A DNA stretch of 59,759 bases from Planctomycetaceae bacterium UBA6894 (GTDB lineage Bacteria; Planctomycetota; Planctomycetia; Gemmatales; Gemmataceae): the NCBI GenBank assembly GCA_002451275.1, contig DKBS01000028.1:1-59759 (forward strand), in the 5' to 3' direction. The position numbers and the translations under genes are program-made. Of this stretch, positions 22,488-31,602 are shown in pieces. The notes under the pieces were generated by a model, which saw only the letters and a program-made list of their open reading frames with translations, did no database searches and was not told the origin of the DNA. The number at the start of each line of letters is the position of its first letter. Positions within the stretch are counted from its first letter, which is position 1.

Positions 22488-23513
22488 ATGCGCGCAGCGA
22501 CGGTATGTCTGCTGGTTCTCGCTTTCACCGGAGTCTCCACGGGCATGGAGCCGGAGCCCTGGCTGACTCCCAAGGCTTTGAAGCCCGGTGACACCATCGC
22601 CGTGATCGCACCGGCAGCGCCCGCCACCCATCCCGAATTTGCGGCCTATGTGAAGCTGATGGAGGGGAAGGGGTACCAGGTGATCAGCAAGCCGGGGCTG
22701 GTGGGGCGCAAGGACCACTACCTGGGCGGAACCGATGACGAGCGGGCCGGGGAGATCAACGAGTACCTGCGCGACCCGCGGGTGCGCATGATCATGCCGG
22801 TGCGGGGAGGCTACGGGGTCTCACGCATCCTGGACCGGATCGACTACGCGGCCCTGCGCCGGGACCCCAAGATCATTGCCGGCTATTCCGACCTGACAGC
22901 GCTGCATCTGGGCGCTGCCCGGCACGCGCGGGTGGTCACCTTCCATTCCCCCATGGCGATGCGCGACCTGTGGCGCGAGCAGGAACCCGCCTACGCCTTT
23001 GCGGCCCGGTCGTTTCGGCGGGCGGTGTTCGCCGAGCAGTACCGCATCGGGGAGCGCGGCTTTGTGGTGGAAGGGCCGGAGGGGCATCAAGCGAAAGCGC
23101 TGGTGGGCGGCAAGGCGACCGGCAGGCTTCTGGGAGGCAACCTGAGCCTGGTAGTGACCCTGATGGGAACACCCCACGCCCTGGAACCCAAGGGAGCCAT
23201 CCTTTTCCTGGAGGATGTGAGCGAGCCGGCCTACCGTATCGACCGCTACCTGTCGCAGCTCCGGTTGGGCGGGGTGCTGGACCAAGTGGCCGGTGTGGTG
23301 CTGGGCTCGTTCACCACGAAGGACGAAAAAGAGGAAAAGGATACCGACCGGGTCTTGAAAGACTATTTCGGCAAACTGAAGGTTCCGGTGGTGACGCGCT
23401 ACCCCGTGGGACACACCCCCCAAAACGCCACACTGCCCCACGGGGCGCTGGTGGAACTGGATGCCGACAGGGGAACGCTGAAGGTGCTGGAAAACCCAGT
23501 GCGGGTGGACTGA
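22488..23513 (+). CDS. ldcA: LD-carboxypeptidase (muramoyl-tetrapeptide carboxypeptidase, S66)
   Basis: 'GDTIAVIAPA', 'IMPVRGGYG', 'GYSDLTALH' and 'GHT' near the C-terminus. A GGAGG lies upstream of the ATG. Confidence 0.85.
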   Translation: MRAATVCLLVLAFTGVSTGMEPEPWLTPKALKPGDTIAVIAPAAPATHPEFAAYVKLMEGKGYQVISKPGLVGRKDHYLGGTDDERAGEINEYLRDPRVRMIMPVRGGYGVSRILDRIDYAALRRDPKIIAGYSDLTALHLGAARHARVVTFHSPMAMRDLWREQEPAYAFAARSFRRAVFAEQYRIGERGFVVEGPEGHQAKALVGGKATGRLLGGNLSLVVTLMGTPHALEPKGAILFLEDVSEPAYRIDRYLSQLRLGGVLDQVAGVVLGSFTTKDEKEEKDTDRVLKDYFGKLKVPVVTRYPVGHTPQNATLPHGALVELDADRGTLKVLENPVRVD

Positions 23514-23570: not shown

Positions 23571-23860
23571 GACTTTCCCAAATAAAGATTTATGGCAATT
23601 GACCTTTCCCTGAACAGGGCCCGCACCTATAGCGCCGCCCGTGCTTGGGGATTGGCAGCCATGGACGGCAGCCGGCCCCGGGCACATCGCCCAAAATCCC
23701 TTGGAGAGTCGCAAGGATGCCGACCCTTCCAGCCTCGTGGTTTCGTTGGCTGATGGCACTGCTGCCGTGCTATGTGTGGATCGCCGCGTCACCGCCTCGT
23801 GCCGGTGCGGGTTGAACACCAGCGGGTTGCCCGCCCACCTTTGCCGGCAGTTTGCCGGTC

Positions 23861-24388
23861 ATGATGCCCAGCCAGTTTCAGGCCATGCCCCAGGTGTATG
23901 CAGCGCCGCCGCCCGCTCAGTGGGCACAGCAGCAGCAGCCGATGTACCGGGCCCCTGCCGCCCAGTATCCCGCCCCGTCGCCGCGGATCGCCAGCGCGGT
24001 GCCGCAGCAACCGGCCCAGCCGCGAATCACGGCCCGCGGAGCGATGCCGGACGAGGCACCCGCCCGTGCCCGGATTGAACTGCCAGCCCCGGAAGCTTTC
24101 GGGCTGAAAGCCGCTCCCGATGCGGGGACCAGTCTGGTGGGGAACACACTCGCCAATCAAACCATCCAGATCACGGCTGTGAACTGGACAATGGTGCGCG
24201 AGGAACTGCATCGGCTGGGAGCCAAGAGCTTCCATGTGGAGCAGCTGAATGATGGGCGGCATCGATTTGCCTGCAAAGTAGCCAAGACCACTGGGCAGAT
24301 GGATTTGGTGGAAGTGTTTGGACGGACGGAGGAAGAAGCGGTTCGCTCCGGCCTGGAAAGGGCGAACGCCCTTCGTTACGGATCGTAA
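23861..24388 (+). CDS. Hypothetical Pro/Gln-rich protein upstream of mraZ
   Basis: ORF with a low-complexity N-terminal half (PPPAQWAQQQQPMYRAPAAQYPAPSP) and a more globular C-terminal ~90 aa. The start is ambiguous (TTG at 23852 or ATG at 23861). I recognised no family. Confidence 0.5.
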   Translation: MMPSQFQAMPQVYAAPPPAQWAQQQQPMYRAPAAQYPAPSPRIASAVPQQPAQPRITARGAMPDEAPARARIELPAPEAFGLKAAPDAGTSLVGNTLANQTIQITAVNWTMVREELHRLGAKSFHVEQLNDGRHRFACKVAKTTGQMDLVEVFGRTEEEAVRSGLERANALRYGS

Positions 24389-24509
24389 GTCTCTGAGCAA
24401 TCAGAGCTTTCGGGGGGAGCCCCGGTCGTCCCAATGGACGGCCGGGGCATTTTTGTTGGGTGACCCCGGTGGGGCTGGTTGCCAAACTGCTGGCGGGATT
24501 GATAAGCTG

Positions 24510-24544
24510 GTGGAGCCCAGTGGGGCCAAGTGGGTAATTGTGGG
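24510..24544 (+). promoter_or_regulatory. MraZ operator: four direct GTGG(A/G) repeats at exact 10-bp phasing
   Basis: GTGGA at 24510, then GTGGG at 24520, 24530 and 24540 (gtggagcccaGTGGGgccaaGTGGGtaattGTGGGcagg). The array lies about 50 nt upstream of the mraZ start. This matches the known architecture of MraZ-binding repeats, which are GTGGG-type boxes with 5-nt spacers. Confidence 0.65.
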
Positions 24545-24593: not shown

Positions 24594-25034
24594 GTGCTGC
24601 TGACAGGAACCCATCGCCGCACGCTGGACGAGAAGAAGCGCCTGACGCTGCCCAAAAAGGTGCGCGAGGTGTTGGGTGAGCCGGGCGTTTTGTATGTGGC
24701 CCCCGGGCCTGACAAGTGCCTGTGGGTGCACACCGAGCAGGAGCTGGAAAGGCTGGCATCTCGCCTGGATGAGCGACCGGCCACCGATGCCGAGGCCCGG
24801 CTGTTCCGACGGCTGTACTTCGGCCAGACGGAACTGGTGGAGGTGGACAAGGCGGGCCGAATTCTGGTGCCGGACCGGTTGGCCCAAGTGGCTGGCCTGA
24901 CGGGTGAGGTGGTGCTGCTAGGCGTGCGGGATCACCTGGAATTGTGGGATGCGGGCCACTGGGACCGCTACCGAACGGAACAGGAACCGCGATTTGACGC
25001 GGTGGCACAAGGAGCTTTTGAGCCCAAGGCGTGA
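24594..25034 (+). CDS. mraZ: Transcriptional regulator MraZ
   Basis: 146 aa from a GTG start. It contains two SpoVT/AbrB-type repeats, 'LDEKKRLTLPKKVREVLG' and 'VDKAGRILVPDRLAQVAGL...VVLLGVRDHLELWD'. The N-terminus aligns with the canonical MFxGxxxxxLDxKGR. The upstream part of the 238-aa track ORF is not MraZ-like. Confidence 0.85.
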   Translation: MLLTGTHRRTLDEKKRLTLPKKVREVLGEPGVLYVAPGPDKCLWVHTEQELERLASRLDERPATDAEARLFRRLYFGQTELVEVDKAGRILVPDRLAQVAGLTGEVVLLGVRDHLELWDAGHWDRYRTEQEPRFDAVAQGAFEPKA

Positions 25035-25291: not shown

Positions 25292-26287
25292 TTGGAGTGG
25301 TCTGCCACCGGGAGAGGTACACAATTGGGTTCACCTGATCACGCCAGCGATGATGACCTGGAAGCGCTTGCTGAAAGCCTTGGCTCCTCAGGAGTTGGGG
25401 CGGGCAAACAGCATGTGCCGGTTTTGCCTTCCGAAGTGTTGGAAGGGCTGAATCCCCAGCCCGGGCAGATTCTGGTGGACCTGACCCTGGGCGGAGGTGG
25501 GCACAGCCGTCTTTTGGCGGAACGGGTGGGGCCCACGGGAAAAGTCTATGCGTTTGACTGCGACCCCCATCAGGTGGAGAAAGCGCGGCAGCGACTGGCC
25601 GGGCTGCCGGTGGAGTGCTTCCACGCGCGCTACGACCAGGCTGGAGAGATCTTGCGGCGATTGGGTGTGAAAGCCCATGGGATTCTGGCAGATCTGGGTA
25701 TTTGTTCGGAGCAATTGGATGATCCCGGGCGCGGATTGGCGTTTCGCCATGAAGGGCCGTTGGATATGCGGTTGGATCCGAGCCGGGGTGAACCGGCCTG
25801 GAAATTGCTTGAACGGTTGGATGAGAACGACCTGACGCGGGCCCTGTTGCGTTACGGCGAGGAGAAGCAGGCGCGCAGGATCGTGCGGAAGATTGTTGAG
25901 GCCCGGAAGGAAGACCTGCCCTGGACCACCACGCGGCTGGCGGAGCTGGTGCGTTCTTGCCTGCCGCCGCGCGGGGTTGTGGGGAAGATCGACCCGGCCA
26001 CCCGGACCTTCCAGGGGTTGCGGATTCTGGTGAACGACGAGTTGGCGGTGCTGGAGGACATGTTGCGGCAGTTGCCCGGCTGGCTGGTACCGGGCGGGTT
26101 GGCGGCGATCATCAGCTTCCATTCGCTGGAGGACCGGCTGGTGAAACAGGCGTTCGCACGGGGCGAGCTGTGGGAACGGGTGACACGCAAGCCAGTGATT
26201 GCCGGCGAGGACGAGGTGAAGGCGAACCCGCGCTCGCGCAGCGCAAAGCTGCGGGTGGCGCGACTGGCAAGCGGACAAGGGCATTAG
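25292..26287 (+). CDS. rsmH: 16S rRNA (cytosine1402-N4)-methyltransferase RsmH (MraW)
   Basis: 'HVPVLPSEVLEGL', 'VDLTLGGGGHS', 'DLGICSEQLDDPGRGLAFRHEGPLDMRLD' and 'ISFHSLEDRLVK'. The start codon is uncertain: there is a TTG at 25292 and no in-frame ATG before the conserved HVPVL. Confidence 0.85.
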   Translation: MEWSATGRGTQLGSPDHASDDDLEALAESLGSSGVGAGKQHVPVLPSEVLEGLNPQPGQILVDLTLGGGGHSRLLAERVGPTGKVYAFDCDPHQVEKARQRLAGLPVECFHARYDQAGEILRRLGVKAHGILADLGICSEQLDDPGRGLAFRHEGPLDMRLDPSRGEPAWKLLERLDENDLTRALLRYGEEKQARRIVRKIVEARKEDLPWTTTRLAELVRSCLPPRGVVGKIDPATRTFQGLRILVNDELAVLEDMLRQLPGWLVPGGLAAIISFHSLEDRLVKQAFARGELWERVTRKPVIAGEDEVKANPRSRSAKLRVARLASGQGH

Positions 26288-26355: not shown

Positions 26356-27924
26356 ATGAAAACAACTGAGACGGGCATGTTTTCCAAGGGCGAGTCCAAC
26401 CGCCGTATGGGTTTATACCTAGGGATAGGGCTGGCAGGCGCGGCCGGCCTTGGGTTGGGAATGGCCTGTAAAACAGCGTGGCAACGGCTGTCAACCAACC
26501 CAGCGACGCCAGTCAGCATGACGACAGGCGTGGCCGACAGAGCCCAGAAGACCACCGGGTCTGAACCCACGCCGATGGACAAGTCGATCCTTCAGGAAGC
26601 CTTTGTCGAGGCCTTCGGCCCTCCCGCCGGACTGCCTCCCGGACTGGCACAAGCTGCAACCGAATTGCCTGCCCAGGAAATTCCCTCCTTCAACCTTGCC
26701 CAGGCGCAGGTGCCCGCCCAGGAAAGCGTGCCGGCTACCAATCTAGACGTCCGATTCAACACCCAGGATTTTCCGATCCCTTTGCCCCCGGCTCCCCAAA
26801 TGTTCCGCCATATCGGCCCCGACGGGCTGGAACGGATCGGGATTGATTTTGAAAACAGCCAGCAAGCCCAGAACACACCCATTCAAATCATCAGAAGGTT
26901 CAGGCATGGGGAACAGGCAAAAGTCTGGGCAGTAGCCCAAAATATGGACAAAAACGACCTGGATAAACTAAATAAATGGGCCGGATATCCGGCAATCAGG
27001 CCTCTTATCCAAGACGCTTGCAGCGATGGCTCGACAACCGCCCTTCTGGAAATGGACGAGCAAATTTGCCAGGTTTTAGGCAGTATCCTCATCCAACGGC
27101 GGGGTGCTGACGGCTTGGCACGGATCGGCGTGGATACGGACCGTTTGGGTCTGGATTTCACCGTGATGATCCCCACTAAGAGGAAAGCGCCCAAACCGGG
27201 CAACAAAAACAGCCAGATCGCACAAGCCGTGGCACAGCCCGGCCATTTTGCCGGTTTGATCCAACAGGCCGGGTTTTTTATCCCGGCAGGTGAAACCACC
27301 ACCAACGATGGCAAGCAGTCCGGTGGCGGCGCCGGGGGAATGGCCAAGGTCGGTCCAGCGTCCCCCATGGGTCTGGAAAAGGGCACGCTGGGTTCGCAAG
27401 AACCGGAACCGCTAATCGGCTCCTTCACCACGGAGTTTGAGGACGGCTACCTGAAACTGCCCGAGGAACTGGCAGGCTGGGTGGTGGAAGGGAAAATCTT
27501 CATCACCCCGGGACCGGATGGCGGCTTGCGCATGGCACCGCTGGAAGATCTGGAAACCATGTTCAGCAACGAGAACGATCCGCAGGCCAACCGCGCGGAC
27601 AACGGCGACATTTCCGCCAAGGAATCCGGGCCCAGCATCCAGTCGCTCCGACGCAACATGCGGCGCTTCTACGGATTGATGACAGCCTGCACCCCCGAGG
27701 AGGACGAGGAGGGCGGCTTGTGGATTCCGCTGGGTGACCAACTGGCCAAGCAGGCCGGCCTTAAGGGCGAGGTGGTGATCGTGGGCATGCGCACCCACGC
27801 TGAGATCTGGTCCAAGGAAGGCTGGGAGGCTGAGCTGGCCACACCCAAGGTGCCAGCGCCACCCAAACAACTGGAACTGCAGAAAGTGGAGAGCCGGACT
27901 AAGACCGCCACTCCGGGCAAGTGA
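26356..27924 (+). CDS. Protein with a hydrophobic N-terminal segment and a C-terminal MraZ-like (double SpoVT/AbrB-type) module; no known function
   Basis: ATG preceded by AAGGAG (26345-26350). One hydrophobic segment, 'GLYLGIGLAGAAGLGLGMA', lies near the N-terminus. The C-terminal ~150 aa aligns by eye to the adjacent MraZ: 'IGSFTTEFEDGYLKLPEELAGW..IFITPGPDGGL' against 'LTGTHRRTLDEKKRLTLPKKVREV..LYVAPGPDKCL', and 'GGLWIPLGDQLAKQAGLKGEVVIVGMRTHAEIWSKEGW' against 'GRILVPDRLAQVAGLTGEVVLLGVRDHLELWDAGHW'. Confidence 0.7.
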   Translation: MKTTETGMFSKGESNRRMGLYLGIGLAGAAGLGLGMACKTAWQRLSTNPATPVSMTTGVADRAQKTTGSEPTPMDKSILQEAFVEAFGPPAGLPPGLAQAATELPAQEIPSFNLAQAQVPAQESVPATNLDVRFNTQDFPIPLPPAPQMFRHIGPDGLERIGIDFENSQQAQNTPIQIIRRFRHGEQAKVWAVAQNMDKNDLDKLNKWAGYPAIRPLIQDACSDGSTTALLEMDEQICQVLGSILIQRRGADGLARIGVDTDRLGLDFTVMIPTKRKAPKPGNKNSQIAQAVAQPGHFAGLIQQAGFFIPAGETTTNDGKQSGGGAGGMAKVGPASPMGLEKGTLGSQEPEPLIGSFTTEFEDGYLKLPEELAGWVVEGKIFITPGPDGGLRMAPLEDLETMFSNENDPQANRADNGDISAKESGPSIQSLRRNMRRFYGLMTACTPEEDEEGGLWIPLGDQLAKQAGLKGEVVIVGMRTHAEIWSKEGWEAELATPKVPAPPKQLELQKVESRTKTATPGK

Positions 27925-27951: not shown

Positions 27952-30330
27952 ATGCCAGATCAACTGATTGAGAACGGGAGAAAAGCCATGGCCATGACCA
28001 CCGAAGTCAAAACCGGGATGATGGTCTCGGGTGCCTTCGCCAGCCTGGTGGGTGCTGTCCTCACCAAACACTATGTTTCCCCAGATGAATTGCTGGGCCA
28101 CAAGGCACCCACCGAGCAGGTAGCCCCTGCCGACGGCGAGGTGAAATTGCCAGATGGGATCGAGGCTGCCAAGGGGACGACCGCGCTAACCTCGGGCCCA
28201 ACCGATCCCAAGAACGAAGTGGTGCTGGCATCAGCAAGCGGTACTGAAAAGGATTCGGCACCACCACCGCCGGTACCCAGCCCAGGCGACCTGCTACCAC
28301 CCCCGCCAACCCCCGCAGGGGCTAGTCCATCGACCACCGACACGATGCCACCGGCCCCGGGCGCGCCGGCGCCCATCGACAAACCGATGGATCTGGCCGC
28401 GCCGGCCCCTGCTTCCCGATCCCTGACGGGTGGAGATCTCGCCCCCCCGGCTCCACCCGCACCGGGCGGTTTGCCACCTTTGGAAGAAAAAAAATCCGCT
28501 GAAGCCTTGGCGCCACCACCTCCGGCGGGAACGGATGCGACCCCAAGTGCCAGCGCACCGCCCGACCCGGCCAAACTGGCCCAGGGCTTGCTGCCCCCGC
28601 CTCCGAGCGGTGGAAACACCCCTCCGGCCCCAGCCGCCCTGACCAGTTCCCCGACACCACCGCCTGACGCCGCCAAACTGGCTGAATCCTTGGTGCCACC
28701 CGCACCGGGCGGCGGCGGATTGGCCCCCCCCGCACCCCCGCCTGCCGCGGGAAGCACCACGGCCATGCCCGACCTGACCAAACCAATGGACAGCTTGGCC
28801 CCCCCTGCCCCAGGCGGCGGGTTGGCTCCAACCCCGCCAGCGGCTCCCTCGGTTTTGCCCGGTGGCCACACCCCCATGCCCAATTTGGCCCAGTCCCTGG
28901 ACAACCCGGCACCACCGGCTCCCCCCGGTGGTTTCGCACCGCCTGCAGCACCAGCACCTTTGTCCTCCGGAACGCCAGGCAGTTTTGCACCGCCCGCAGC
29001 CCCTGTTACCACCGGTGATTTGACGCCACCCGCAACACGGAACGCGACCGTTGGCGGGGCAGTGGGGTCTGGCGGCCTGGCCCTAGCCAGTGAGTCATTC
29101 CCCTCGGAGCCGGGCAAGCCCGGTATCGCACGGGTTTTGACCTTCCCGCTTTCCAATGGGCCCGAAAAACGATCAGAATCAATTCCGTTGGATGAGCCTG
29201 GCTTCCCTGTAGGCCGTTCCGTGGGCGGGGCACCTTCCCTGGCCACCGGATCCCTGCCACCCAGCGGCCCACCCCCATTGGCTGGTCCCAGCGGCTCCGA
29301 GGGCGCAGCCCTGCCACCCTCCGGCATGCCCGGCAACCTGAACGCGCCGGCCAGCCCATCCCGGCCGGCGGCCTTCGTACCAGTGGAAGGACGGAACATC
29401 CCCGTGCTGACCATGCAGCCCAACCCGGGCCAACCCATGCCCATCACCCCGGGATCCATTCCGGTCCCGACTGCGGGGGCCGGCTTGCCCCTCAACCCGA
29501 ACACGGTGACCAACACCGTCAACGGGCTGAACAACAATCTCAACAACACCGCCAACAGCCTTGCCAATCAGGCCAACAACACCGTGGGCGGCTTGAACAA
29601 CCAGTTGAACAGCGCGGTGAACGGGGCAAACGCCAACCTGAACGCCGCCACCAACAATCTCAACAACACGGCCAGCGGATTGAACAATTCCCTGAACGAT
29701 GCTACCCGGAGCCTGAACAACACCGCCACCAACCTGAACAACCAAGCCAACTCCACCCTCAACGGGTTGAACAACAGCCTGAACACCACCAACAACAATC
29801 TCAACAACACCGTCAATGGGCTGAACACCCAGGTGAATGGTGCCACCAACAGCCTCAACAACACGGTCAGCGGGCTCAACAACAGCCTGAACAACACCAA
29901 CAACAATCTCAACAACACCGTCAATGGGCTGAACACCCAGATGAACAGTGCCACTAACAACCTCAACAACACGGTCAACGGGCTCAACAACAACCTGAAC
30001 AACACGACCAAGGGCCTGAACAACACCGTGAGCGGCTTGAACAACAACCTCAGCACCGCCACCAACAATCTCAACAACACCTTGAGCAGCGTGAACGGAG
30101 CCGTTTCTTCGTGGACCGAGCAGGCCTACAGGGTGCAATCCGGCGATTCCTGGGAGAAAATCAGCCAGGCACAATACGGCAGCACGCTGTACGCGCCTAC
30201 GCTGAGGACATTCAATCAGACCCACCCGCGCGCCAGTGAAACCCTGGCGAAGGACGGCACTCCGGTGGCCGGCCAGGAGGTTTACCTGCTACCCTTGGAC
30301 CAGATACGCAAGCTCACAACCACACCCTGA
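27952..30330 (+). CDS. Membrane-anchored Pro-rich / Asn-rich repeat protein with a C-terminal LysM domain
   Basis: N-terminal hydrophobic segment 'MMVSGAFASLVGAVL'. About 380 aa are Pro/Ala/Gly-rich (repeated 'LAPPAPGGG'-type units), followed by about 200 aa of Asn-rich repeats ('NNLNNTVNGLN'). The C-terminal 'YRVQSGDSWEKISQAQYG...VAGQEVYLLP' fits the LysM pattern Y.V..GD....I....Y......N.......G....P. An alternative start is the ATG at 27988 (GGGAG upstream). Confidence 0.7.
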   Translation: MPDQLIENGRKAMAMTTEVKTGMMVSGAFASLVGAVLTKHYVSPDELLGHKAPTEQVAPADGEVKLPDGIEAAKGTTALTSGPTDPKNEVVLASASGTEKDSAPPPPVPSPGDLLPPPPTPAGASPSTTDTMPPAPGAPAPIDKPMDLAAPAPASRSLTGGDLAPPAPPAPGGLPPLEEKKSAEALAPPPPAGTDATPSASAPPDPAKLAQGLLPPPPSGGNTPPAPAALTSSPTPPPDAAKLAESLVPPAPGGGGLAPPAPPPAAGSTTAMPDLTKPMDSLAPPAPGGGLAPTPPAAPSVLPGGHTPMPNLAQSLDNPAPPAPPGGFAPPAAPAPLSSGTPGSFAPPAAPVTTGDLTPPATRNATVGGAVGSGGLALASESFPSEPGKPGIARVLTFPLSNGPEKRSESIPLDEPGFPVGRSVGGAPSLATGSLPPSGPPPLAGPSGSEGAALPPSGMPGNLNAPASPSRPAAFVPVEGRNIPVLTMQPNPGQPMPITPGSIPVPTAGAGLPLNPNTVTNTVNGLNNNLNNTANSLANQANNTVGGLNNQLNSAVNGANANLNAATNNLNNTASGLNNSLNDATRSLNNTATNLNNQANSTLNGLNNSLNTTNNNLNNTVNGLNTQVNGATNSLNNTVSGLNNSLNNTNNNLNNTVNGLNTQMNSATNNLNNTVNGLNNNLNNTTKGLNNTVSGLNNNLSTATNNLNNTLSSVNGAVSSWTEQAYRVQSGDSWEKISQAQYGSTLYAPTLRTFNQTHPRASETLAKDGTPVAGQEVYLLPLDQIRKLTTTP
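29490..30100 (+). repeat. In-frame tandem coding repeats (Asn-rich), including a 108-nt near-perfect tandem duplication
   Basis: The 42-nt string aacaacaatctcaacaacaccgtcaatgggctgaacacccag occurs identically at 29791-29832 and 29899-29940, an offset of 108 nt (36 aa). The flanks are near-identical. The core 'aacaatctcaacaacac' recurs five times, near 29534, 29653, 29794, 29902 and 30064. Confidence 0.8.
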
Positions 30331-30381: not shown

Positions 30382-31602
30382 GTGCGGCTGGCGATGTTTC
30401 TTCCCCACCTAGGGGTATCCGGTGGCCTTGGGGTCCATTGCCGGGCGCTGCTGGAATCGCTGGCCACCTGCGGCGCAAAAGCGGGCCTGCACCTGGATGT
30501 GATTTGCCCGTCCAACCCGCAGTCGCTTTTTCCCCTGGCGGGTCTGGATGACACTTGGCAACCACTGGTCCGGCGCGACCATCTCACCCTGCACAGCATC
30601 GACTGGCCCGGCGGGCTTTCGCTGGCCGATGTGCTGGATCCAGCCCTGCTGGATCTGGTGCGCTCGCTGAAGCCGGACCTATTCTACGCCTCGTACTACA
30701 CCGGGCTGGAAAAGCCACCCTGCCCGCAGGCCATCACTTTCCATGACGCGGGATTTCTGGAATTCCCGCATGTGTTTGGCGACACAGCGCGCAAGCGGCG
30801 TGAGACCCTGGCGCGGATCGGCGGCGCGGTGGACCGGTTGCTGTGCGTTTCGTCCGATGCCCGGGACCGCATCTGCCGGCTGCTCCCCTTTCCAAAGGAA
30901 CGCGCCGAGGTGGTGTGGCACGCACTGTACGACCCGCCGGCCACCCTGGAAAGCGCCCGCGATACCGCCCAGATGAACCAACCCCTCTGGCCGGGGGGGG
31001 ATCGGGTCACCGATTGGGGTGACTATGTTTTCCTGCCGGTGGGAGCTGCCACCGGTTTCAACCGTGTGCGCAAAAATGTTCCCTTGGGCGTACGGGCATT
31101 CCGGGCAGTGCAGAATCCCGCCTTGAGGCTGGTGGTGGCCAGCACGGGAACGCTGAACGACCAGATGCTGGGCCAGTTGATCGACCCCGCCGAACAGGCC
31201 GCCGGCCGTTTTGAACGGGGCGTCTGGGTTTCGGGTGATGGCAGGGTGCTGATCCTGCCCAACCTGGACCGGTTGCCTTTCCTGCGAGCAATGGCTCACG
31301 CCAAGGCCGTGCTATACCCCACCCGGTACGAAGGATTTGGCCTGCCCAGCATCGAGGCCATGGCCCTGAGAACACCCCTCATCGCCGGCGACGCGACCAG
31401 CGTTCCGGAGGTTGTGGGGGATGCAGGCATCCTGGTGCCTCCCGATGACCAATCTGGCTTCACCCGGGCCATGGAACAGGTGCTGACCGACCGGTCCCTG
31501 CGGGAAAGCCTTATCCAAAAGGGCTCGGAGCGATTGAACCTCTTCACCCCAGCCCGCATGGGTGAGCGCATGCTGCACGTTTTTTCGGGGATGCTGGCCT
31601 GA
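30382..31602 (+). CDS. GT4-family glycosyltransferase
   Basis: GTG start. 'MRLAMFLPHLGVSGGLGVH' is a typical GT4 N-terminus. 'YPTRYEGFGLPSIEAMALRTPLIAGDATSVPEVVGDAGILVPPDD' carries the EX7E-type motif. Confidence 0.85.
   Translation: MRLAMFLPHLGVSGGLGVHCRALLESLATCGAKAGLHLDVICPSNPQSLFPLAGLDDTWQPLVRRDHLTLHSIDWPGGLSLADVLDPALLDLVRSLKPDLFYASYYTGLEKPPCPQAITFHDAGFLEFPHVFGDTARKRRETLARIGGAVDRLLCVSSDARDRICRLLPFPKERAEVVWHALYDPPATLESARDTAQMNQPLWPGGDRVTDWGDYVFLPVGAATGFNRVRKNVPLGVRAFRAVQNPALRLVVASTGTLNDQMLGQLIDPAEQAAGRFERGVWVSGDGRVLILPNLDRLPFLRAMAHAKAVLYPTRYEGFGLPSIEAMALRTPLIAGDATSVPEVVGDAGILVPPDDQSGFTRAMEQVLTDRSLRESLIQKGSERLNLFTPARMGERMLHVFSGMLA

Follow-up and report, generated by a model that had tools for sequence, protein, structure and literature searches.

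Why should a planctomycete that encodes an ordinary MraZ carry a second, membrane-tethered MraZ-like protein two genes further on? The question is raised by a stretch of 59,759 nucleotides (the window) from Planctomycetaceae bacterium UBA6894, family Gemmataceae (GenBank assembly GCA_002451275.1, contig DKBS01000028.1, positions 1 to 59,759, forward strand). The gene in question is an open reading frame (ORF) at 26356-27924 (+) of 522 amino acids (aa), with an ATG start backed by the N-terminus MKTTE(T/S/N)G, which is conserved among homologues. Members of its identical cluster bear the JGI label 'hypothetical protein'. The protein is here named MraZ2 and placed in a divergent subfamily, the target family. 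Canonical MraZ is a free cytoplasmic protein of ~150 aa, binds repeated GTG(G/T) boxes sequence-specifically and forms ring oligomers of 8-12 subunits. The target is 522 aa long, with a transmembrane (TM) helix and a linker of ~300 aa, and its gene stands third in a string in which canonical mraZ stands first.

The C-terminal MraZ module

The C-terminus is a real, divergent double-repeat MraZ module. The initial annotation had proposed this by eye for the last ~150 aa (27414-27860, codons 353-502) from the likeness to a neighbouring gene that it took for mraZ; the neighbour is a bona fide mraZ (Table 1), and the module, residues 353-497, is a full two-repeat MraZ. With canonical MraZ (PF02381 / TIGR00242; 1N0E, 9QLG, 9R4J, 9SZ7) it shares two tandem SpoVT/AbrB-type half-barrels, flanking helices and the mraZ-rsmH gene string. 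By BLASTP against the neighbouring MraZ, the C-terminal 187 aa are 33% identical over 113 aa (E 1e-14), the alignment covering repeat 2 in full and repeat 1 in its second half. Near the end of the module 15 of 28 residues are identical by direct count, in agreement with the estimate of about half over the last ~30. A profile of 10 family C-domains (C-terminal 180 aa) matches MraZ chains alone in the PDB at E <0.001 (1n0e, 1.6e-6); one of these alignments covers both repeats (12-155 against 23-149 of 9qlg). Against 18 canonical MraZ, hhalign gives a probability of 99.8% (E 1.4e-27, 130 aligned columns, both repeats). Taken alone, the window protein falls below the PF02381 threshold (19.4 bits against 23, repeat 2 only; 21.7 bits for the isolated domain) and far below the TIGR00242 cut-off (28.3 against 98.35), yet the profile-profile match is near certain, and all 10 family members tested match PF02381 (best E 2.9e-6).

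The AlphaFold2 model of the domain has a mean predicted local distance difference test (pLDDT) score of 76, ~90 in the core. Searched with Foldseek against the PDB, it yields 16 matches at E <=0.001, all of them MraZ chains (E ~2e-9, target-normalised template modelling score 0.69-0.77, 146-152 alignment columns); the next match is at E 0.22. Structural invariants of canonical MraZ are kept, namely P20, R73, D85, G110, E116 and W118 in the numbering of the window MraZ.

The residues that read DNA are not kept. In M. genitalium MraZ, studied by cryo-electron microscopy (2026), K13, R15 and R86 read GTG(T/G) boxes, D11 and D82 position the arginines, and each of the substitutions K13A, R15A and R86A abolishes DNA binding (PMC12957436). 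These five residues are numbered here as in the M. genitalium protein. D11, K13, R15, D82 and R86 are all intact in the canonical MraZ of the window, and K13, R15, D82 and R86 also in its Gemmataceae orthologues. Among 78 canonical MraZ, ~10 of which are gapped at positions 11-15, K13 is present in 61, R15 in 64, D82 in 76 and R86 in 76. Among 12 members of the target family, K13 is deleted in all, R15 is replaced by Y (10) or S (2), D82 is kept in all, and R86 has become N, G, K or S. Further contact positions are changed: N14 is G, and E or D stands at T9, D11, A20 and S83. Net charge is -8 over the two cradle segments, against a median of +1 in the 78 canonical proteins, and ~-11 over the whole domain, against -2 in canonical MraZ; the isoelectric point of the domain is ~4.6-5.0. 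The replacement residues are themselves conserved (an invariant EEDEE run; G-Y), which speaks for selection on a new surface and against decay.

Features of the MraZ ring interface (PMC12957436) are retained in part. The polar residues E49, R66, R70 and E113 are kept. Hydrophobic positions are altered, with F73 changed to G and no equivalent of alpha6. The inter-repeat helix-loop-helix, which interdigitates in MraZ rings, carries an insertion of 16-30 aa in the target family, and repeat 2 one of 2 aa.

The target gene is under purifying selection. Compared with the L002 orthologue, the ratio of nonsynonymous to synonymous substitution rates (dN/dS) is 0.21 for the whole gene and 0.14 for the module (mraZ 0.045, rsmH 0.11 in the same comparison); constraint is strongest in the linker around DGKQSGGGAGGMAKVGP (0.09). 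Across lineages 53-95% identical in this region, 65 C-terminal alignment columns are invariant, and full-length frames are intact in at least 12 homologues. The family is small. A word-indexed search gives 13 clusters at 90% identity. A hidden Markov model (HMM) scan of 1.84 billion representatives gives 7 clusters (50% identity) at E <1e-30, with 3 fragmentary or frameshifted, and the exact 522-aa-type architecture is rare among these representatives. A contig scan with exact peptide patterns finds three related loci, a lower bound, all in Gemmataceae or planctomycete metagenome-assembled genomes.

The initial annotation had also described a hydrophobic N-terminal segment, followed by ~330 aa with an internal 'DGLERIGIDF' / 'DGLARIGVD' repeat. 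Both features are present. The segment is a single helix, aa 18-38, in which G23, A27, G31, L32 and G35 are invariant; no second hydrophobic segment is found in the 522 aa by Kyte-Doolittle analysis. The N-terminal and middle regions have no Pfam or NCBIfam match. In the full-length AlphaFold model the helix spans 18-47 at low confidence, and all outside the module is disordered except at 178-241, where there is a weak alpha/beta region. Most of the first 350 residues have a pLDDT <50, and the model shows no docking of the N-terminal motifs on the MraZ module.

Conserved throughout the family are the MKTTE N-terminus, the Gly/Ala-rich helix, the motif AFVEAFGPPAGLP (invariant residues A82, F83, A86, F87, P89, P90, G92, L93 and P94), the motif DGKQSGGGAGGMAKVGP, the MraZ-like module and the basic tail. 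Members carry one to three (G)DGLERIG(I/V)DF motifs, and the length of the linker is variable. In the window protein these motifs lie at aa 154-165 and 250-268. The ~85-aa insert between them, aa 166-249, is without a Pfam match and occurs in four members only (P0001-3 and P0007). Two copies of G(I/A)DGLERIGIDFD are also found at aa ~340-440 of an unrelated protein of 1209 aa (P0031); as a short module the motif is therefore not confined to the target family. Its interpretation as a LysM relic, suggested by a weak BLASTP high-scoring segment pair, is rejected at an hhalign probability of 0.1% between regional profiles. A Tat or lipoprotein signal at the N-terminus is likewise rejected, since neither the RR pair nor the Cys that follows the hydrophobic segment is conserved across the family.

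Membrane-anchored MraZ proteins of the Gemmataceae

A MraZ paralogue behind a TM helix was an arrangement unfamiliar to the initial annotation. It is not a one-off. The next tier of the HMM scan consists largely of proteins of 260-540 aa with a C-terminal MraZ domain. At least 141 of these are long forms from Gemmataceae, in which a TM helix at the N-terminus leads into a Pro-rich linker, then in most cases a LysM-like domain, and finally the MraZ domain at the C-terminus; a search seeded with one of them (P0029) gives at least 241 clusters (90% identity), whose database names are 'MraZ protein', 'transcriptional repressor MraZ' or 'hypothetical protein [Gemmataceae]'. Canonical MraZ of ~144 aa is also common in the family. 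No description of a membrane-anchored or LysM-linked MraZ was found in the searchable literature; the architecture is present in databases and appears not to have been analysed before.

In the long forms a strongly hydrophobic helix follows an N-terminal tail of ~7 residues (120 of 141), and none of the 141 has a second hydrophobic segment. The motif GEPPLAP and a LysM-like domain precede the MraZ domain in ~100 of 141. The LysM-like domain is common, not universal; the L013 member is without it. Its profile matches LysM-fold proteins alone in the PDB (best E 5.5e-4), Kbp among them. The MraZ domain itself is Pfam-significant (E 1e-9 to 5e-22). Conserved cysteines are seen in the long forms (e.g. 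P0249, aa 250-262, 300-310 and 345-350): 'DAC' after the LysM-like domain, 'TGT(F/Y)xC' in strand 1 of the MraZ domain, and 'PGPDxC'. A disulfide between two of them, if true, would be an independent sign of periplasmic location.

Position in the genome is shared as well. In four independent contigs (L004-L007) the order is small ORF, mraZ, rsmH, target gene, TM/Pro-rich/LysM protein and GT4 glycosyltransferase. In L008-L011 it is rsmH, the TM-Pro-LysM-MraZ protein and a LysM-type protein. In L012/L013 the small ORF, GTGGG boxes, mraZ, rsmH, a 284-aa TM protein with a MraZ domain and a 574-aa LysM-type protein follow one another. In all four lineages whose loci were read, the gene for the TM-anchored MraZ stands after rsmH and before a TM-Pro-rich-LysM gene. 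The gene downstream of the long forms encodes a TM-Pro-rich protein of 500-570 aa with a C-terminal LysM-like domain, homologous at both ends to the 792-aa ORF of the window (E 3e-13 and 2e-12). In L008, L009 and L010/L011 no canonical mraZ precedes rsmH within 8 kb; PIN-domain, DUF6941 and other unrelated genes are found there.

This layout, shared by several Gemmataceae lineages, identifies the 522-aa ORF as a divergent positional orthologue of the membrane-anchored MraZ paralogue. In a neighbour-joining tree of 130 MraZ-type domains the target family is monophyletic and equally distant from canonical and long forms; the tree was tried for the origin of the module and is uninformative on it, so orthology to the long forms rests on synteny. 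In the tree set the module is 25-31% identical to both groups; its identity to the long-form modules is also given as 24-31%.

The long forms (P0029, P0249, P0236) have in common with the target an N-terminal single TM helix, a low-complexity linker, the C-terminal MraZ-type domain, the slot and a partial erosion of the DNA-reading motif. They differ in the GEPPLAP motif and the LysM-like domain, both absent from the target family, which has motifs of its own: AFGPPAGLP, DGLERIGIDF and QSGGGAGGMAKVGP. Erosion is class-wide, with R15 kept in 9 and D82 in 13 of 140 long forms. The long forms mostly keep K13 (99 of 140) and R86 (124 of 140), whereas the target family has lost both. The L013 paralogue, which lacks LysM like the target, is likewise one residue short at K13, in the first DxxxR loop. 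The target clade would be the extreme, fully DNA-blind form of the membrane-anchored class.

Proposed function and rival explanations

The target ORF is read as the clade-specific, fast-evolving orthologue of a second MraZ paralogue that would extend across the Gemmataceae. MraZ2 would be a single-pass membrane protein encoded directly after rsmH. In ordinary division and cell wall (dcw) clusters this slot belongs to ftsL. In the target clade the module would keep the MraZ fold and its structural invariants, with base-reading residues lost and the cradle strongly acidic; from these two changes it follows that the protein would not act as a MraZ-type repressor. Repression would be left to canonical MraZ and the four-box operator at the head of the gene string. 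The module would serve as a protein-binding or self-assembling unit on a long flexible membrane tether; it is probably periplasmic and would probably cooperate with the LysM-type protein encoded downstream, in the biology of the envelope or of division. An even chance is given to this reading, a membrane-tethered, DNA-blind MraZ-fold module acting by protein binding or self-assembly, probably in the periplasm and with a LysM-type partner. A periplasmic location of the C-terminal module, taken by itself, is modestly favoured. Of the functions offered by the initial annotation, re-use of the MraZ fold for a purpose other than DNA binding is preferred; a membrane-sequestered DNA-binding regulator is unlikely, with K13, R15 and R86 gone in 12 of 12 members and a cradle charge of -8.

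Known systems offer partial parallels. The swapped-hairpin proteins of the SpoVT/AbrB group (AbrB, MazE and VapB-type antitoxins) have the same 'cradle' barrel as the target module, and antitoxins of this group have additional surfaces for protein-protein binding. They are small cytoplasmic homodimers that contact DNA by a DxxxR-type loop, whereas the target barrel is a single chain, membrane-tethered and without the arginines. The relationship of the MraZ fold to SpoVT/AbrB is stated in PMC12957436. The target resembles TonB and TolA in layout; there is no sequence or fold relationship, and the likeness is one of analogy. No ExbBD or TolQR partners are seen near the target gene. In the TonB / TolA layout a short N-tail precedes a lone TM anchor, from which a long Pro-rich spacer leads to a globular head at the C-terminus.

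On topology, the long forms point weakly to a cytoplasmic N-terminus and a periplasmic head, by their flank charges (N-side +2, C-side +1, with a 7-residue N-tail) and by the LysM-like domain between anchor and MraZ. The lone hydrophobic segment and the likeness in layout to TonB and TolA are taken as further cues to topology.

Several points weigh against the favoured reading. The flanks of the target family are balanced or slightly favour a cytoplasmic C-terminus (N 0 to +2, C +1 to +3). The target family has no LysM-like domain (hhalign of the motif region, 0.1%), and in the long forms the LysM-like assignment is near or below the Pfam thresholds (LysM, Phage_tail_X). LysM folds are not strictly extracytoplasmic, Kbp being cytoplasmic. 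The module might still bind nucleic acid by another mode despite the lost contacts, and its oligomerisation or partner binding we infer. Descent from a long-form paralogue and a separate duplication of canonical mraZ would look alike in sequence.

Unlikely, and foremost among the rivals, is a cytoplasmic anti-MraZ decoy, in which the module would co-assemble with MraZ rings, or its acidic cradle would mimic DNA and dock on the basic cradle of MraZ, with MraZ titrated to the membrane and the operon de-repressed. The target and canonical MraZ share a gene string, with the presumptive MraZ operator upstream and no strong terminator-like hairpin between the two genes; some polar ring-interface residues are kept, the flank charges of the target family are compatible with an N-out, C-in orientation, and the acidity of the cradle fits DNA mimicry. 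Set against these are the orthologues of L008-L011, which have neither a canonical mraZ within 8 kb nor a GTGG array, so that the role of the class would be independent of an adjacent MraZ. Most orthologues, moreover, have a LysM-like domain between TM helix and MraZ module, pointing to the periplasm. The long insertion in the ring-interdigitating helix-loop-helix and the changed hydrophobic interface also speak against co-assembly.

An improbable alternative is a modified FtsL-type divisome protein, an ftsL descendant with a MraZ-derived head; this concerns origin and is compatible with the favoured explanation. FtsL and DivIC are small bitopic proteins, encoded after rsmH, whose leucine-zipper coiled coil lies in the periplasm. 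The target matches them in slot, bitopic layout and short N-tail and differs in its 522 aa. The Gemmatales have lost most dcw genes and keep mraW (PMC12283558). The target has no FtsL/DivIC match in Pfam at E up to 1, no confident helix beyond the TM region, hence no sign of a leucine zipper, and no sequence similarity by which descent could be tested.

Quite improbable is a membrane-tethered transcription factor of altered DNA specificity, acting either in its tethered state or once freed by proteolysis. The target keeps the MraZ fold and many core residues, the long forms keep K13 and R86 in the numbers given above, and 'transcriptional repressor MraZ' is their database name; yet in the target three essential basic residues are missing, five more contact positions are acidic or neutral, the domain is acidic in its isoelectric point, and for the known operator there is already an intact canonical MraZ. 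Regulators of the ToxR/CadC type place a DNA-binding domain in the cytoplasm at the N-terminus and a sensor in the periplasm, with a TM helix between; in the target the order is reversed and the DNA-reading residues are lost. A decaying duplicate, that is a mraZ relic fused by accident to a membrane ORF and without function of its own, would account for a module dN about twice that of canonical mraZ (0.125 against 0.058), a dN/dS about three times higher, the score below the Pfam threshold and the lost functional motif, and is hardly credible for a module whose dN/dS is lower than that of most of the remaining gene, whose invariant columns include the replacement residues EEDEE and G-Y, whose fold is confidently predicted and whose full-length frames are intact across its homologues.

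Extended from the clade to the class, the favoured reading becomes more tentative. The MraZ2 class might be an extracytoplasmic form of the MraZ/SpoVT-AbrB fold, a ring-forming or partner-binding head tethered across the periplasm to the inner membrane; placed in the ftsL slot, it might belong, with its co-transcribed LysM protein, to an FtsZ-independent division or envelope machinery of budding Gemmataceae.

Gene string and significance for the Gemmatales

The features of the locus are collected in Table 1. The order is co-directional: hairpin, GTGG boxes, mraZ, rsmH, target ORF, 792-aa ORF and a glycosyltransferase of family 4 (GT4).

Table 1. Features of the mraZ gene string in the window and parts of the 522-aa protein
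Feature	Position	Strand	Remarks
LD-carboxypeptidase gene (Peptidase_S66)	22488-23513	+	E 1e-34 to 1e-37
Small ORF	23852-24388	+	178 aa as listed; real start probably later
Terminator-like hairpin	24419-24448		13 pairs, 11 G-C, then T-run; strong
Four GTGG boxes, presumptive MraZ operator	24510-24543	+	exact 10-bp spacing (GTGG-N6 x4); 2 overlapping pattern matches vs 0.01 expected
Canonical mraZ	24594-25034	+	146 aa, GTG start; Pfam MraZ 2e-25; TIGR00242 above cut-off
rsmH (mraW)	25292-26287	+	start codon uncertain; Pfam and NCBIfam scans
Whole target ORF, MraZ2 (divergent subfamily)	26356-27924	+	predicted bitopic membrane protein with C-terminal MraZ-like module
Short N-terminal tail, aa 1-17	26356-26406	+	net charge +2
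Single Gly/Ala-rich hydrophobic helix, aa 18-38, predicted membrane anchor	26407-26469	+	Kyte-Doolittle mean 1.65 over 19 residues
Conserved motif AFVEAFGPPAGLP, aa 82-94	26599-26637	+	in disordered Pro/Gln/Ala-rich linker; pLDDT <50
First IGPDGLERIGIDFE motif, aa 154-165	26815-26850	+	
Lineage-specific insert, aa 166-249	26851-27102	+	weakly predicted alpha/beta; pLDDT 53-62
Second motif copy GADGLARIGVDTDRLGLDF, aa 250-268	27103-27159	+	
Invariant Gly-rich motif DGKQSGGGAGGMAKVGP, aa 318-334	27307-27357	+	
MraZ-like repeat 1, aa 353-406	27412-27573	+	DxxxR replaced by E-D-(gap)-G-Y
Acidic family-specific inter-repeat insertion, aa 407-431	27574-27648	+	in the loop that interdigitates in MraZ rings; low model confidence
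MraZ-like repeat 2, aa 432-497	27649-27846	+	D82 kept, R86 changed to Gly; invariant acidic run EEDEE
Conserved basic C-terminal tail PK..PK.LELQKVE.R.K, aa 498-522, plus stop	27847-27924	+	disordered in model
792-aa partner ORF	27952-30330	+	TM helix, Pro-rich region, Asn-rich repeats, weak C-terminal LysM-like domain
GT4 glycosyltransferase gene	30382-31602	+	

About 50 bp separate the GTGG boxes from the GTG start codon of canonical mraZ, which lies downstream. L002 and L004 have the same array, L013 a similar one; none is found within 8 kb at loci with the long MraZ form only. By its agreement with the box consensus (PMC12957436) the array is the presumptive MraZ operator, and the hairpin and boxes together (24419-24543) are probably the boundary and MraZ operator of the operon. 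A sigma-70 promoter scan found no promoter. Terminator-like matches are at chance level, save the strong hairpin.

The 792-aa protein has a Pro-rich region of ~350 aa, an Asn-rich block ('NNLNNT…GLNN') and a LysM-like domain at a Pfam E of 0.0095. The versions of the protein in the window, L005 and L006 have the Asn-rich block; those of L004, L008-L010 and L013 lack it. This gene accounts for a sharp negative GC skew (-0.21) at 28-30 kb. The small ORF upstream of the hairpin matches no Pfam family; its C-terminal ~100 aa (…NWTMVREELHRLGAKSFHVEQLNDGRHRFACKV…) are conserved directly upstream of mraZ in L005, L006, L007 and L013, and it seems to be a conserved, uncharacterised companion of the mraZ operon in Gemmataceae. 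The operon is flanked by the S66 gene, syntenic in L005, L006 and L007, and the GT4 gene, syntenic in L004, L006 and L007. LD-carboxypeptidase is a peptidoglycan-recycling enzyme. With these two flanking genes, the neighbourhood is cell-envelope related.

For annotation, hundreds of membrane proteins are now named 'transcriptional repressor MraZ', and for many of them the name is probably wrong. For the MraZ family, the target family is a natural separation-of-function variant, with the MraZ fold kept and the DNA-reading residues replaced by conserved acidic ones; it would be evidence for a selectable activity of the MraZ fold other than DNA binding. For the organism, the Gemmatales lack ftsZ, ftsA, ftsB, ftsW and most genes of lipid II synthesis (mur), with mraW kept (PMC12283558), and how they divide is an open question. 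The remaining dcw cluster consists of mraZ, rsmH and the two membrane-protein genes after rsmH. Being part of what remains of the cluster, these two membrane genes are testable candidates for lineage-specific division or envelope factors.

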